NCBI GenBank assembly: GCA_041500405.1
Contig: JBGQMB010000001.1
Location: 20,376-84,375, forward strand
Length of the DNA: 64,000 nt
Source: Candidatus Micrarchaeia archaeon
GTDB lineage: Archaea > Micrarchaeota > Micrarchaeia > Anstonellales > J096
Direction of reading: 5' to 3'
Below are positions 48,001-57,000 of the stretch, piece after piece. The position numbers were made by a program. The first letter of the stretch is position 1. Every line of letters begins with the position of its first letter.

Positions 48001-51000
48001 CTCATTGAAACGTTCGGGATAAGGTTCGAGACGCTTGAGACTGTAAACATCAAGGATTTCGAGGCCGTTGTTTCGGTTGACGCGTCCAACTACGGGCTTT
48101 TCGAAATTGACAGGTCAATGAAGATAGCCGCGGTTTTCGACCACCACCAGAAGGCATACAATGGGTTCGAGGGCGAGTTCAACTATATAGACCCGAATGC
48201 AAAATCCACTGCTGAAATAATAGCCGGCATACTGGAAAGGGAGCTGGACAAGGAGGATGCGGCCATGCTTGCAGCTGCCATAATAATGGACACGGCGAGG
48301 TTCAAGTCCGCGAACAACGAAACATTCAGCATCCTGTTCAAGCTTATAGAAAAATCGAAGAGGGATTATTCAGAGCTTCTTTCAATCGCATACCCTCCGC
48401 TTCCGACAGACGAAAAAATAGCGATCCTCAAGGCGCTTCAAAGGGTGGAGTTCTTCGAGCACAAGGGATTCATAATCGCCCTGTCCAACGTCAACGCGAA
48501 GATAGGAGAGGCGTCATCAATGCTTTCTGATGCTGCGGATGCCGCGTTTGTCGCGCAGTTCAACGAAACTGAAAGGAAGACCATGGTTTCCGCAAGGGCA
48601 AATTCGCATTTCCCGGTTCCGCTGAACGGCATAATGTCGGAGATAGGCAAAAAATTCAAGGGCTCGGGAGGAGGCCATTTCAAGGCGTCCGGCGCATTCG
48701 GCTACGCAAAGCCAAATGAGGTGCTTGAGATGTGCCTCGGATTAGTCAAGCAGGAAATAGACAAGAAGAACCTGGATTATAGTCAGATTGTGCCGAAGAA
48801 ATAATTGTCATTAAGCGGAGTTTTGTGTTGATATTCCGCTGCAGCCAGCCATCTTTTATAAACCGTTTACACAACCAACCATGTAAGTGGTATGATGAAC
48901 GGAACCTTCAAGGATGTCAAAAAGGAGCTTGATGTCTACAGGCACAGGAAATACATCACGCAGGCCAAGCTGATAGACATCAGCACAGGCAAGAAGATTG
49001 TCGTGCTCAACGACAGGGAAGCAACCGCCAACGACGTATTCGAGGGCCAGAGGGTCGAGATAAAGATAAAGGGCGCGCCGCACATAGTCGTTGTCAACCT
49101 TTCAACGCACCTTGTCAAGGAAGGCGAGATTGGCATTTATGCTGATGTTTCAAAAGGATTCACAATATCAAATGGGGACATCATAGAGATAAACCACGTG
49201 CCGCTGCCGAAAAGCATTGAAACGATAATAAAGAAAATAGGCGGCCAGCCGACCACGAAGGAGGAAACAGACGCGATAATAACGGACCTCATGGCAAACA
49301 GGCTTTCGGAGGCAGAGCTGTCCGCGTGGCTGACCGCGTGCTCGGTAAGGGGGCTTAATGACGACGAGACTGTTTCACTCACCGAATCCATGGTCGCGTC
49401 CGGGGACACGCTCAAGCTTGGCAAGTCTCCCATAGTGGACAAGCACTGCATAGGCGGGGTTGCGGGAAACAGGACCACGATGGTGCTCGTCCCGATAATC
49501 GCGTCCGCAGGCATTTTCATACCGAAAACATCCTCAAGGGCGATAACGTCCCCTGCCGGGACAGCGGACACCATGGAGGTTTTCGCGCCCGTCAACATAA
49601 GCATGGACGAAATGAGGGAAATAGTCAAGAAAACATTCGGCGTCATAGTCTGGGGAGGCGGCATAAACATAGCGCCTGCAGACGACAAGATGATACAGCT
49701 CAGGCGCTCGCTGAGGATGGACCCGAAAGGCGTCCTTCTTGCAAGCATCCTGAGCAAGAAGAAGGCTGTCGGCTCGGAGCATGTGCTCATAGACGTGCCG
49801 CTCGGCATAAACGTCAAGATAGGCGATATGGGCGCAGCGCAGGACCTTGCAAAGGAATTCAAGACAATAGGCGCAAGGCTTGGCATGAACGTCGGCGTGA
49901 TCGTGACAAACGGCTCTGAGCCCATAGGCGACGGCATGGGGCCGGTCCTTGAGGCAAAAGATGTTCTCATGGTGTTGGAGGGCAAAGGCCCTGCGGACCT
50001 TAGGGACAAGAGCCTGCTGATGGCCGGAAAGATATTCGAGCTGTGCGGCAAGGTCAGCAAGGGCGAAGGATACGACGTGGCAAAGCACTTCCTTGAATCA
50101 GGCAAGGCGCTTGCGAAGATGAAAGAGATCATAGCGGCCCAGGGAGGGGACCCGAATGTGAAATCAAGCTCATTGCCGACAGCGAAATACTCTTATATTG
50201 TCAAGGCCACGGTTGACGGAAAGATAGAGCACATAGACAACAAGTGCGTGTCCCGCATCGCAAGGGCGACGGGGGCGCCGCAGGACAAGGCCGCGGGCCT
50301 TTACCTGCACAAGGCAAAGGGCGACACCATCAAGGTGGGCGACGTGCTTTTCGAGCTTTTCGCGGAAAGCGAGGCAAACCTGGATTTTGCGCTCAAGATG
50401 GCGGAAGAGTTCAACCCCGTTATGATGGGCAAGGTGCTGCTTGACGAGTTCTGATGCACCGTCAGGTATAAAAACATCGGCCGCCCAATCGTTGCACATG
50501 GGCGTAATCTCCATTTTCGGAAAGACCGCCTGGAAAGGCTGCAGGATAGCCCTTCCCGAGGCAGAGGACGGGCGCATTTTGGAGGCGGCCGCGGCGGCAA
50601 TGAAAAAAGGGTTCGCGACGCCGGTCCTGATCGGGGACAAAAAAAAGATAAAGGCAAAGGCCACGGAGCTCGGCATCAGCATTGCCGGCATTGAGGTAAT
50701 GGACACGTCCAAAGGCGTTCCGCGGAAATACGTGGACGCCTATGCGAAAATAAGGCATGTGCCTCTGCGGCTTGCCGAGCGCATCCTTTCGGAGCCCATC
50801 TTCCTTGCTGCCCTGCTTGTTAAGCAGGGGGAGTGCGATGCCATGATGGGCGGCGCCGTGTACACCTCTGCCGACGTCATAACCGCATCAGAAGGCATAA
50901 TCGGCCTGAAAAAGGGCATATCCGTGCCTTCGAGCTTCTTCATAATGGAGATACCGGGATATGAAAACAAGGAGGGCGGGCTTGTGCTTTTCGCGGATTC

Positions 51001-54000: not shown

Positions 54001-57000
54001 CACGCTAAGGTAGTCTATGTCGTCGGCCGTTATGCCCGCCATCCTCATGGCCGTGCTGAACGCGGTCCTGTCTATGTCCCATTCCGCGGGGTCCTTTCCG
54101 TACCACGGGTAGTTGCTTGCGCTCCAGTGGAATCCCTCCACGCCTATAGGCTCCTTTTTGCAGAACTCCCTTGCCTGCGCGTCCGAGCTTATTATGTATG
54201 CGGATGCGCCGTCGACTGTGTTGAGCGCGCTCCTCACCCTTGTGGGCCATGCAAGGAACGGGTTCTTTGCGCTCTTCCAGAATTCCTTGTCGTCCCTGAA
54301 CCCGGCCTTCTTCGCGTCCTGCTCGAACGTGGTCTGCACGTATGCCTTGCTGTTTTTGGACGAGTGCAGCTTGATGGTCCTGTGGATTTCGCGCATTGCC
54401 TCATCCATCTTTTCCATCTTCACGCCGTATTTCTTCGCGTATCCGAGCGTGGGCAGGCCGCCGTATGCGGTCGCGATGTCATATGAATGGTGGTACCCGT
54501 ATGCCTGGTCCACGCCGAAGTCTGTCCAATACCAGAGCGTCGTGGGGTCCAGCGGCTTCCTTATTGTCGGGTCGTCGGTTGCCGTTGACGAGAGTATCTC
54601 GCATCCCACCACAAGGACGTTCCTGAACTTTCCGGACGCAACCCCCATCGCAGCAAGCCCGACGCCGGTGTTGGTGGTTGAACAGGCTGTCGCAAAATGG
54701 ATTGCCGGCTTCAGGTGCAGCCCAAGCCAGTCCGCCATCTGGGTATTGTGAGAATAAAGATGACTTGCATGGCTGAGCATGCTGCCTATATAGAACGCGT
54801 CTATGTCCTTCGGGTCTATCCCCGAATCGTCCATCGCCTCGAAGGCGGCCTCGCACGCGAGCTCCTGGAAGCTCAATCCCTTTATCTCAGGGGTTTCCAG
54901 AACGCTTCCGAATTTGGTGCATCCAACGCCGGTTATCACCGGCTTTTCCTTAAGATTTCCCGCATATGCCATAATCTCCCCCTGCTCTGGTTTGGGTTGT
55001 CTTGCTTTTATTTGTTTCTTAGGATATACAGGAATGTTCAGCAACTGCGACCATATGCCAAGTTTTGCTTAAAAGAACTACTTTCTGGCGAGCCCCCGGG
55101 TTTCCCAGCGCCGCTTGAGCGCAACCTCGTCAAGGTTAAGGACGAGCGAGAACGCCACTTCCTTTAACCTTGGGTCGTAGCTGCTTTCCCTTACTTCAAG
55201 GTATTCGATGCCCCTGCTTCCAGGGTCGTACTTCTGGATTGCCGCGCCGAAGTCTTTTTTCATCTCCGCAACAGCGGCATTCGCGTCTATCTGGGACTGG
55301 ACGTTGAAAAGCTTGAAAATCATCGGCTGGTGGGACTTGAAATCCTGGACGGCAAGCCTTCCGTCGCGCCCGCTTCCGCCCGGCAGTATTGCGCCGTACT
55401 TGTCGTCAAGCTTGTTGAGCAGTCTCTCAAATTCCTTAGCCACCGCATCTTTCGCCGTTTCCTTCGGCACTGCCTCCTTCAAGCTGACTTTTCCATTGCC
55501 CATATGACCACTGTTCGATATTTTTCACGGAAAGGCACTAAAAGGTTGCTATTTCCTGAACGGGCTTTTCCATGTCTTGAGCTTTTCCTTCACGCCCAGG
55601 ACTTCGTAAACCCCTTTCATGGCCTTTTCCGCGTCTGCGAAAATACGCTCCATCTCGGCTTCGGAAAAGCCGTTGTTGTTATCCCTGTCCGACGTGAAAA
55701 TCGTGTCGCCCAGCGCATTCGCCTTCCTGCGGAGCACATTCAGGTTCAAGTTTGCCTGCATATTGGTTCCTTCGATGTTCTTGACGCAGTAGAACACTAT
55801 GCGGTCAGGCTTCAGGTCATTGTTGAAGTCTATCATGTCGTAGCTGTTGTCGCCCTTCTCGGGCCTGCCTTCGCGCACCACTTTGGCGCAAGGCGTCTTC
55901 ACGCCCTTTACATCGCTTATCTCAAAACTGAATTTCTGGTTCTTGAGCAAGCCTTCTGTCTTGAAGCCCCTCTGGCATTCGTAGAATGCCTTAGCTTCCG
56001 GTCCGGGCTTTATCTCCCTGAATTGCTTTTTGCCGCAGCTTATGCCTATAGTAAGCCCTGCAACAAGCGGAAGAAAGAGCACGAACGGCAACTCCTTTGC
56101 CGTCCTCTTGATCGCTGTCCTCAAGTCCGCATTTTCAGGCCGTGCCTTGAAAAGCTGTTTCATAACATGTTATTTCGTGTAAACAATATAAAAAACTTGC
56201 GGTGATGGCTCAGGTTCCCTCGATTATGGAAACAACCTCATTCTCGTCCTTGAAGCCCGCGTAAACGGCGTCGTCTATTATGAGCGTCGGGTAAGCGCTG
56301 AAGCTGTACATTTTCTTGAGCATGCTCACTATCGCGGACTCCGTGGACGAGCCGTCAAACGAGTATATCCTCAGCTTCACGCCCTTTTCCGTGAAATAGC
56401 TTCTCACGCGCCAGAGTGCGGTTCCCTGGTCGCTGCACTTGCCGCACTCGCCCTCCTTATTAGAGTAAATGTATATTATTGTTTTCACGCTGTCGTTGCA
56501 GAGCCCGGCCGCGTTCCTTGCAAGCAACAAGTCCCTGTACTCCAGCTGGTAATACTTGAATTTCAGGCTTTGGTCAAATGGCTTCTTGCTGTATTCCATG
56601 AACTCCAATTGCTGGCCTATGCCCCAGGTCTCGTTTTCAAATGACGGGGAAAGCTCCCCGTACATGCTGCAGAACAGCGCGGGGTTTGATTCCGAGCCAA
56701 GAAGAAGCTGCATGTTCATCATGTTGTCGTTCATCGCCTCTATCTGCGCCATGACCGGGTCGGAGGCGTTGTCAGTAAGGTAATACCCTATCGCGACGCC
56801 TGAAAGGAACAGCAGCAGCGTAAGCACGAACGTTATCGCATATATCTCCCAAGTCCACATCCTCATCATTTTCACCTTGTGCTCCAAGCTTTCTCTTTTC
56901 CCATTATCTCCATGAGCAGGCTGGTGACCCATATATAGGGCCAGATGTACCCGAAGACAAAAAGGTAAACGAACATCTCCGGCGCCTCCCTGACTATGTT

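Follow-up and report, generated by a model that had tools for sequence, protein, structure and literature searches.

Why should a tiny symbiotic archaeon, with a genome of 916 kb (86% complete), keep an acyl carrier protein (ACP) and an AcpS-type PPTase next to phosphotransacetylase (Pta), acetate kinase (Ack), a thiolase and a DUF35 protein? The genome-wide survey's note had described pta-ackA-acpS on the plus strand facing acp-DUF35-thiolase on the minus strand, and open reading frames and family matches confirm these two converging units at 50498..54972 of the window, by which we mean the whole stretch of 64,000 nucleotides analysed (Table 1). Reading these numbers as contig coordinates (minus 20375, giving 30123-34597) was rejected, as that interval holds unrelated ORFs. 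Neighbouring genes abut or overlap, by 25 bases between pta and ackA, 4 between ackA and acpS, and 4 between the thiolase and DUF35 genes, and the two units converge with an 11-base overlap between acpS and the 3' end of acp. The pta ORF (50441-51493, plus strand) opens with a TTG at 50441, and its probable start is ATG 50498. The thiolase ORF (53692-55044, minus strand) is also TTG-started, and because its homologues are 426 aa long, spanning 95% of the ORF, we take ATG 54972 as the start. The TATA-like GTATAAAAA may be an archaeal promoter for a leaderless pta-ackA-acpS transcript.

Table 1. Genes and candidate signals of the six-gene locus, in window coordinates.
Feature	Position	Strand	Basis
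Pta, module-type phosphotransacetylase	50498..51493	+	PF01515 PTA_PTB, 329 bits
AckA, acetate/propionate-family kinase	51469..52680	+	PF00871 Acetate_kinase, 455 bits; TIGR00016 461 vs cut-off 293
AcpS-type PPTase (holo-ACP synthase), 124 aa	52677..53051	+	PF01648 ACPS, 48 bits; TIGR00516 62.4 vs cut-off 59.8
Acyl carrier protein, 81 aa	53041..53286	-	PF00550 PP-binding, 37 bits
DUF35 partner protein, zinc ribbon + OB fold	53288..53695	-	PF12172 zf-ChsH2 + PF01796 OB_ChsH2_C
Thiolase, SCP2/archaeal type, 426 aa	53692..54972	-	PF00108 Thiolase_N + PF22691 Thiolase_C_1
TATA-like GTATAAAAA	50466..50474	+	sequence reading only; about 24-32 bases 5' of pta ATG
GGGGGAG, Shine-Dalgarno-like	54976..54982	-	read from the bases alone; directly upstream of thiolase ATG 54972

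Conservation bears on whether the six genes belong together. Of the order's 176 genomes, host included, 18 have a module-type thiolase (at least 48% identity), and in all 17 relatives fetched the genes and their order are the same up to where the contigs end; the flanks differ, with a flanking gene common only to two loci of the same genus. PP-binding matches are found in 21 genomes of the order, 18 of which are module genomes with the match lying within the module, and PTA_PTB matches in 19 (16 of them module genomes), figures with which the survey's 12-15 of 175 genomes is consistent when read as a floor. Outside the order, the module turns up with its genes rearranged in other DPANN and Asgard archaea, in CPR bacteria, and in Chloroflexi, Actinobacteria, Clostridia and Desulfatiglandales, with gene order and strand differing among phyla. 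For this wider comparison we kept 80 loci from genome_contigs, 37 of which carry the ACP: 25 have all six genes, six from Clostridia/Bacillota are missing Ack only (save one that also shows no AcpS), and six are cut by contig ends. Pta is kept with the ACP in 31/31 ACP loci with sufficient contig reach, while Ack is sometimes absent from the cluster. When every ORF from 38 linked loci was clustered all against all, a single additional gene proved to recur next to the six: in 8 bacterial loci an AraC-type regulator lies divergent from the thiolase. No conserved neighbour was a reductase, a thioesterase, a transferase or an HMG-CoA synthase. The opposite strands in the window could be taken to mean that two unrelated operons came to lie side by side through chance or genome compaction; this idea is hardly credible and is in practice refuted by the conservation data, as the six families are found together in other orders and strands across archaeal and bacterial phyla while their flanks change. 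Co-conservation across phyla in shuffled order thus supports the six genes as one functional set and not chance neighbours. A literature search found no paper that describes this module.

The carrier protein claimed in the survey's note is real, and it comes with its own PPTase. Among 33 aligned sequences Ser39 is invariant (33/33), preceded by Lys38 in at least 90%, a Lys-Ser in place of Asp-Ser, and the protein is basic (pI 9.3). Helix II begins at Ser39 in the AF2 model (pLDDT 88.8), and the fold is that of AcpP, with the T. thermophilus ACP 1X3O as best solved match (TM 0.92). Because its fold matches include ACP subunits in cysteine desulfurase and MukBEF complexes, the protein might be cast as a structural or regulatory subunit of a thiolase/DUF35 complex instead of a substrate carrier. 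We consider this very improbable, since a dedicated AcpS is kept with the ACP even beside another PPTase (a second one was present in 4/4 free-living carriers checked), which together with the invariance of Ser39 indicates a working phosphopantetheine arm. The module ACP is a private carrier with a dedicated AcpS. The host genome holds one PP-binding match and none for ketoacyl-synt, adh_short_C2, FabA/FabZ, AMP-binding or Acyl_transf_1/FabD, so the earlier statement that there is no other fatty-acid synthesis holds for the five families searched, and the data support ruling against the module as a remnant of that pathway.

The same genome has two Thiolase_C_1 matches (contigs C1 and C8) and two DUF35 matches (C1 and C6), and the module pair had been called a second, diverged copy. 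This is borne out. The module thiolase and the housekeeping one share 31% identity over residues 259-448, close to the 27% given before. Cys97, His325-Asp326-Cys327 and His375 of the thiolase are invariant in 16/16 aligned sequences, and Cys97 aligns with Cys85 of 6ESQ. The translated DUF35 protein has a C4 zinc ribbon, CKKC...CKNC (Cys-x2-Cys-x10-Cys-x2-Cys), and among solved structures it is matched best by the DUF35 chain of 6ESQ (E 8e-14).

If acetyl groups pass between this carrier and phosphate, the enzyme of interest is Pta. The window Pta falls narrowly below the NCBIfam pta cut-offs (305.3 vs 310; 288.1 vs 311.2), and its AF2 model has a pLDDT of 93.4. Aligned to the M. thermophila Pta 1QZT, it retains Ser309, Arg310, Asp316 and the Arg87 equivalent and has Thr for Arg133, a column in which 0/36 module-linked Ptas have Arg. 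We built a tree of 177 tips, including 150 library representatives, with proteins of 280-380 aa retained. All module Ptas fall in a clade of 84 tips, whose support is no higher than 0.75 in a quick, midpoint-rooted FastTree analysis. Within it 80/84 tips are without Arg at the Arg133 column and 75/84 have a loop after Arg87 that is 2-3 residues shorter; among the tips outside, Arg is found in 71/93 and the longer loop in 75/93. As judged from this alignment and tree, the module Pta belongs to a putative distinct sub-family, a sub-clade without Arg133 and with a shortened Arg87 loop. The Arg133 and Lys92/Arg87-loop positions touch the CoA nucleotide phosphates in solved Ptas, and the arm of an ACP has no CoA nucleotide groups. 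The survey's note had read the locus as a carrier-bound Claisen condensation fed from acetyl phosphate, and its acetyl-phosphate link fits these altered contacts.

Passages of PMC6461089 on these residues report that Arg87 and Arg133 affect the Km of the M. thermophila enzyme, and that in P. gingivalis Pta replacing Arg135 or Arg89 cut activity by only 21% and 58%, so that loss of the Arg residues is no proof that CoA has been abandoned. Such still-active mutants would also suit an ordinary pair of Pta and Ack that turns acetyl-CoA into acetate and ATP, with the ACP used only by the thiolase and DUF35 protein (for example to shuttle acetyl or acetoacetyl between CoA and ACP) and the linkage due to co-regulation. 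In keeping with this, the catalytic residues of Pta are intact, and two members of the order that are 97-98% complete (G168 and G169) encode a comparable pair of Pta and Ack and give neither a PP-binding nor a thiolase match, the Pta of G168 falling within the module clade. The module Pta is moreover the only PTA_PTB match in its own genome and in a Chloroflexi carrier, so it could also be the general Pta; the only other PTA_PTB match in a Desulfatiglandales carrier is without the Ser-Arg pair. We nonetheless think an ordinary pair unlikely, given that it is Pta that always accompanies the ACP whereas Ack can drop out, that loss of Arg133 and of the Lys92 loop extends across the clade, and that housekeeping routes lie elsewhere. 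The host encodes the beta subunit of an ADP-forming acetyl-CoA synthetase, and two Clostridia with an Ack-less module have four and three PduL-type phosphotransacylases, enzymes for acyl-CoA, together with an unlinked acetate kinase each. Such a pattern is as expected if free acetyl phosphate is shared and only Pta must match the ACP.

Our best explanation, offered tentatively, is that the six genes form a self-contained module in which ACP may stand in for CoA in the transfer that links Pta to the thiolase/DUF35 pair, working in the catabolic direction. What the data show are the genes, their catalytic residues, their joint inheritance and the changed CoA-nucleotide contacts in Pta; we infer the use of the ACP by Pta and thiolase, the direction and the substrate as follows. 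AcpS would load the phosphopantetheine arm onto Ser39; the thiolase, held by the DUF35 protein, would use Cys97 to break (or make) the C-C bond adjoining a carbonyl and hand the acetyl to the ACP thiol; the Pta paralogue would swap it between ACP and phosphate, PlsX reaction logic on a Pta fold; and acetate kinase would convert acetyl phosphate and ADP to acetate and ATP. A beta-dicarbonyl or beta-ketoacyl substrate would thereby lead through acetyl-S-Cys, acetyl-ACP and acetyl phosphate to ATP. If so, acetyl groups travel bound to a protein and not to coenzyme A, possibly to yield ATP.

Run the other way, Ack and Pta would activate acetate to acetyl-ACP, and the thiolase/DUF35 pair would condense two acetyl units to acetoacetyl-ACP, for example to feed the mevalonate pathway or to make a small lipid or polyketide. 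The condensation direction of the survey's note is kept only as this rival, which we regard as doubtful. Gene linkage and the Pta signature fit it equally, Methanosarcina is known to activate acetate through Ack-Pta, no residue of the Claisen set is missing from the thiolase, and a housekeeping thiolase and a DUF35 protein are encoded on other contigs. However, joining two acetyl thioesters in a Claisen condensation is thermodynamically uphill, no enzyme of the four kinds named above is conserved beside the module, and the host has no KS, SDR, FabA/FabZ or FabD match; Clostridia, Chloroflexi and Desulfatiglandales also hold the module, behind AraC-type regulators, as substrate-induced catabolic operons do. 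We lean to cleavage because condensation is uphill, no conserved neighbour could pull the reaction or free its product, and these regulators fit a catabolic operon. Against cleavage counts that we found no encoded route for loading a beta-ketoacyl group onto the ACP. By analogy with PhlC we propose that the thiolase could attack a free beta-dicarbonyl directly, although PhlC requires PhlA, absent here. The portion of PMC6392133 that deals with PhlC and its DUF35 partner PhlB has acetyl held on Cys88 without CoA, a precedent for CoA-free acyl transfer.

Among known systems, bacterial type II FAS resembles the module in its AcpS-type PPTase and in an AcpP-type carrier on which the module ACP model superposes (about 39-40% identity, E. 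coli AcpP chains); it differs in having Asp-Ser where the basic module ACP has Lys-Ser, and in its KS, FabD, FabA/FabZ and adh_short_C2 enzymes, for which the host gave no match. The 6ESQ complex shares the thiolase type (profile match E 1.8e-40), the DUF35 zinc-ribbon/OB partner, and an aligning nucleophilic Cys and His-Asp-Cys loop. That complex runs on CoA, in the section of PMC6392133 describing it, and includes an HMG-CoA synthase that the module does not have, while the module thiolase carries insertions (426 aa vs 388-392 aa in solved enzymes) and shares its locus with ACP, AcpS, Pta and Ack. PhlACB (PpATase, a CoA-independent Friedel-Crafts acylase of Pseudomonas protegens, 5M3K/5MG5) likewise pairs a DUF35 protein with an SCP2-type thiolase, both among the solved matches of the module proteins, but the sequences match only in part, in the C-terminal region (E 2e-30), and PhlACB needs its HMG-CoA-synthase-like third subunit and is without ACP, Pta and Ack. 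With the classical Pta-AckA pair (M. thermophila 1QZT; P. gingivalis 6IOW/6IOX) the module shares the Pta fold, the Ser309/Arg310/Asp316 set and a full-scoring acetate/propionate kinase, and it differs in the Thr at the Arg133 equivalent, the shortened Lys92-equivalent loop and a Pta score just under the family cut-offs. PlsX, finally, converts acyl-ACP and Pi to acyl phosphate and holo-ACP, the very reaction proposed for the module Pta; the family found for the module protein is PTA_PTB, not PlsX, the group transferred would be acetyl, and a kinase, not lipid synthesis, would receive the acyl phosphate.

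The genome-wide survey's note had reported pta-ackA-acpS converging on acp-DUF35-thiolase, and family scans that identify each of the six genes confirm this cluster at the positions tabulated here; a reading of its coordinates with the contig offset (30123-34597) leads to unrelated ORFs and was ruled out. Adjacent module genes abut or overlap, and the two convergent units share 11 bases. We place the start of the thiolase at ATG 54972 because its homologues are 426 aa long, covering 95% of the TTG-started ORF. Reading the sequence by eye, we find a GGGGGAG run upstream of this ATG and GTATAAAAA some 24-32 bases upstream of the pta ATG. 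A scan for sigma-70 promoters and terminators, which is ill-suited to archaea, gave counts no higher than shuffled sequence. Directly 5' of pta, a gene encodes a 520-aa protein with an N-terminal extension that we take to resemble archaeal AMP phosphorylase. Among the relatives it borders the module in just two loci, both of the same genus. On the other side, two ORFs of 141 and 204 aa without a Pfam match lie upstream of the thiolase on its strand, and only one of the two same-genus loci has a counterpart of the 141-aa ORF (47% identity).

Positions of the module genes, of neighboring ORFs and of features at related loci (positions without a locus name are in the window; L numbers are loci fetched from other genomes)
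Feature	Position	Strand	Families
pta	ORF from TTG 50441, probable ATG 50498, end 51493	+	PF01515
ackA	51469-52680	+	PF00871, TIGR00016
acpS	52677-53051	+	TIGR00516, TIGR00556
acp	53041-53286	-	PF00550
DUF35 gene	53288-53695	-	PF12172 + PF01796
thiolase	53692-54972	-	PF00108 + PF22691
520-aa protein	48892-50454	+	Glycos_trans_3N, Glycos_transf_3, PYNP_C
141-aa ORF	55078-55503	-	
204-aa ORF	55549-56163	-	
AraC-type regulator	L082, L084, L097, L098, L103, L122, L126, L132, about 6800-7900	divergent from thiolase	AraC_binding_2 + HTH_18
transposase/integrase genes	L084 5383-6746; L132 414-1478, 16176-17264		
two tandem thiolase-DUF35 pairs around one acp, then acpS-ackA-pta	L070 5922-12871		

These known gene families form a genuine combination that has been widely transferred and is previously undescribed. 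A module-type thiolase (at least 48% identity) occurs in 18 of the 176 genomes of the order, the source genome included, spread over three families, and all 17 relatives have this gene set in unchanged order as far as their contigs extend. PP-binding domains are found in 21 of the 176 genomes, including all 18 module genomes, where the single match always falls inside the module; PTA_PTB is found in 19, of which 16 are module genomes. The other two module genomes lack a Pta match, and in them the contig with the module is just 3.6 kb long and breaks off within ackA. Across a phylum-wide sample, the thiolase was matched at E 1e-80 or better in 20 of 401 genomes.

When one genome was scanned for each species, at least 113 confirmed thiolase relatives were recovered, and the loci of the best 80 were sorted by gene content using profile searches of their ORFs. 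ACP is present in 37 of these best 80 of at least 113 loci: 25 hold all six genes, six are interrupted by contig ends, and six from Clostridia/Bacillota carry thiolase, DUF35, ACP and Pta (five also AcpS) and lack Ack despite the contig continuing. Another 39 (within L083-L133), mostly from Proteobacteria, have a thiolase of 45-49% identity with DUF35 only, and no ACP, Pta or AcpS nearby; three stop at the thiolase or DUF35 gene, and one Myxococcota locus pairs thiolase and DUF35 with a broken Pta. Seven loci of the proteobacterial type, comprising 49 ORFs, showed no recurrent informative neighbor family. The carriers among the matches listed include Micrarchaeota, Woesearchaeota and Asgard archaea, along with Saccharibacteria, Minisyncoccia, Actinobacteria, Chloroflexi, Clostridia and Desulfatiglandales, and gene order and strand vary between carrier groups.

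In a quick thiolase tree rooted on the source genome's housekeeping thiolase, ACP-linked enzymes occur on either side of the first split, with the unlinked proteobacterial branch nested among them, and the several positions taken by Micrarchaeota thiolases point to horizontal spread. In two bacterial genomes the module is bordered by transposase or integrase genes, with a MazEF-like pair as well in one of them (L132), and these flanks fit horizontal movement. A woesearchaeal locus (L070) has two thiolase-DUF35 pairs, and may represent a duplicated catalytic pair with one common carrier. All-against-all clustering of ORFs from 38 linked loci among the matches listed turned up a single further recurrent neighbor, an AraC-type regulator just upstream of the thiolase in eight bacterial loci, whose ligand could point to the module's substrate. 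The seven bacterial loci that were annotated contain no genes that would indicate a polyphenol or phloroglucinol context.

Archaeal ACP has been considered nearly absent and bound up with fatty-acid synthesis; according to reviews, ACP and its processing enzymes occur in only few archaea and are of bacterial origin, and archaeal fatty-acid synthesis is ACP-independent (PMC3533463; bioRxiv 10.1101/2024.07.05.601840). The assembly of the source genome (916 kb, 60 contigs, 86% complete) contains a single PP-binding match. Thiolases and DUF35 genes number two each, and the additional copies (thiolase on contig C8, DUF35 gene on contig C6) are solitary on their contigs. The seven sequencing runs listed as containing the stretch are all DNA runs from sediment metagenomes, with no RNA run among them. 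Type II fatty-acid synthesis (PF00109, PF00698, PF13561, PF07977) and AMP-binding enzymes have no match in this 86%-complete genome. The survey's note had read the cluster as a carrier-bound Claisen condensation fed from acetyl phosphate. Our results support this reading in part: the six genes form a genuine transferred unit, and a remnant of fatty-acid synthesis is rejected by five empty family searches (ketoacyl synthase, FabD, adh_short_C2, FabA/FabZ and AMP-binding); as to its direction, we come to prefer the reverse, as set out below. An ADP-forming acetyl-CoA synthetase beta subunit and a POR_N protein are present in the source genome, and CoaB (DFP) has no match in its assembled 86%. 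AcpS uses CoA as the donor of the phosphopantetheine arm, and the source organism may take CoA or a precursor from a host.

The carrier protein is a convincing ACP by family and fold (PF00550 at 37.2 bits against a cut-off of 20.8), although it scores just below the cut-offs of the NCBIfam ACP models (e.g., 70.7 against 71). Its predicted structure (pLDDT 88.8) has the four-helix layout, with helix II (39-53) beginning at Ser39, and superposes on AcpP-type ACPs with a TM score of 0.92 to 1X3O. All 33 module ACPs compared have Ser39, and in at least 90% of them Lys38 precedes it. The attachment motif is His-Ala-Lys-Ser-Met rather than the Asp-Ser-Leu that is canonical for AcpP-type proteins, and the acidic charge of that type is also lacking (pI 9.3 in the window, 4.8-10.1 across loci). 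ACP net charge rises with the net charge of each of its five partners, Ack included (rho 0.35-0.80), an effect of proteome composition that makes charge complementarity uninformative. AcpS exceeds its model cut-offs (TIGR00516, 62.4 against 59.8; TIGR00556, 69.9 against 45.35). Since all four free-living bacterial carriers checked have at least one further PPTase, the module supplies its own activating enzyme.

The thiolase scores above the cut-offs of both its families (PF00108, 44.9 bits; PF22691, 115.3 bits), and all 16 diverse family members compared share Cys97, His325-Asp326-Cys327 and His375. The His-Asp-Cys stretch corresponds to the 'HDCF loop', which has an acid/base role. Cys97 aligns with Cys85 of the Methanothermococcus thermolithotrophicus thiolase (6ESQ), which PMC6392133 gives as the active cysteine. 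Nearest among solved chains are the acetyl-CoA acetyltransferase 7YVY, the 6ESQ thiolase, benzoylsuccinyl-CoA thiolase and SCP2 thiolases, and the module enzyme differs from the solved thiolases by insertions absent from them. Its DUF35 partner combines an OB fold with a C4 zinc ribbon (in translation, CKKC-x10-CKNC), finds its best solved match in the DUF35 chain of 6ESQ, and is encoded next to the thiolase in 77 of the best 80 of at least 113 loci, the other three ending at the thiolase. The module thiolase is probably a competent, non-decarboxylating enzyme with its usual scaffold partner, and gene linkage suggests that it acts on ACP rather than acyl-CoA thioesters.

PTA_PTB is the only Pfam match of module Pta (PF01515, 329 bits), which misses the equivalog cut-offs (NF007233, 305.3 against 310; TIGR00651, 288.1 against 311.2). 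Aligned with Methanosarcina thermophila Pta (1QZT), it retains the catalytic Ser309, Arg310 and Asp316, and the Ser-Arg pair is invariant in our alignment A2. Thr stands in place of Arg133, and the stretch following Arg87 is a few residues shorter; in all 36 module-linked Ptas the Arg133 column holds something other than Arg. We placed these proteins in a quick, midpoint-rooted tree of 177 tips, made up of the best 150 sequences of a 50%-identity library filtered to 280-380 aa, together with the Ptas of the module and two others from the order that are not linked to it. All module Ptas fall in one clade of 84 tips (support 0.75), in which 80 lack Arg133, 75 have a loop after Arg87 that is 2-3 residues shorter, and 41 keep Arg87; outside it, Arg133 is present in 71 of 93, the longer loop in 75 and Arg87 in 76. 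According to PMC6461089, Porphyromonas gingivalis Pta binds the 3'-phosphate of acetyl-CoA through Arg89 and Lys92 and its beta-phosphate through Arg135, the mutants losing only 58% and 21% of activity, and Arg87 and Arg133 of the M. thermophila enzyme chiefly affect Km. These contacts are made with the nucleotide portion of CoA, and the ACP arm has no such portion. The signature is therefore consistent with ACP having taken the place of CoA, without being proof of it.

The proposal that ACP replaces CoA in the module is well motivated. Module Pta might nevertheless serve acetyl-CoA too, since it is the only PTA_PTB match in both the source genome and a Chloroflexi carrier. Also against the proposal, the window Pta retains Arg87, and the trees are quick ones. 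Two further genomes of the order (G168 and G169, 97-98% complete) encode a 313-aa Pta beside Ack (L147 on G168:C3, and G169:C2) with no ACP, thiolase or DUF35 gene near the pair and no PP-binding or thiolase match genome-wide, yet the Pta of G168 has no Arg133 and still groups within the module clade. The gene content of the loci leans towards replacement of CoA by ACP. Among the best 80 of at least 113 loci, Pta is present in every ACP locus with sufficient contig and Ack is not. Ack itself scores above its family cut-offs along the full length (PF00871, 454.9 bits over profile positions 1-392; TIGR00016, 461 against 293.4). Two Clostridia with an Ack-less module have an unlinked acetate kinase and four and three PduL-type phosphotransacylases, and the module Pta is their only PTA_PTB match apart from butyryl-type paralogues. 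A retained Pta and a dispensable Ack would be expected if acetyl phosphate were free for any kinase to use and Pta had to match a private ACP.

These considerations lead to a scheme in which AcpS would arm ACP with phosphopantetheine, the thiolase on its DUF35 scaffold would break the bond beside a carbonyl to form an acetyl-Cys97 intermediate, and the acetyl group would pass to the ACP thiol, from there to phosphate by way of Pta, and finally yield ATP through Ack. We prefer this catabolic direction because thiolase condensation is uphill, because no pulling or product-releasing enzyme is conserved with the module among the matches listed, and because the bacterial modules sit behind AraC-type regulators. 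The full proposal, a CoA-independent, carrier-protein route to ATP in which acetyl is cut from a free beta-dicarbonyl onto a private ACP and handed to Pta and Ack, and which travels as a portable cassette among DPANN, CPR, Asgard archaea and anaerobic bacteria, is tentative, and we consider it possible but on balance rather unlikely.

A full-text literature search, with subscription-only papers outside its coverage, found no paper on the six-gene set. Its occurrence ties ACP, in archaea without fatty-acid synthesis genes, to the ATP-yielding Pta-Ack pair instead. If Pta takes acetyl-ACP, the module would allow substrate-level phosphorylation that bypasses the CoA pool, which would be relevant where CoaB is not found. 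For DPANN and CPR cells, about whose metabolism little is understood, the module is a candidate energy source that lends itself to testing, and it can be taken to the bench because the cultured Geosporobacter ferrireducens and Sinanaerobacter chloroacetimidivorans carry it.

Known systems offer partial parallels. PMC6392133 presents PhlC with PhlB as an enzyme type for which a free C-acetyl compound can be the acetyl source, with no need of CoA, and PhlC is a partial match of the module thiolase. However, the PhlACB Friedel-Crafts acylase has a third subunit, the HMG-CoA-synthase-like PhlA, which PhlC requires and the module lacks; no PhlA-like gene recurs beside the module in the 38 linked loci among the matches listed. 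The abstract of a 2026 paper describes the conversion of a streptococcal HMGS/ACAT/DUF35 complex to a C-acetylase. If Pta does take acetyl-ACP, it would be a Pta-fold enzyme with PlsX-type chemistry; the FA_synthesis (PlsX) domain is not part of module Pta, and the likeness to PlsX lies only in the proposed reaction.
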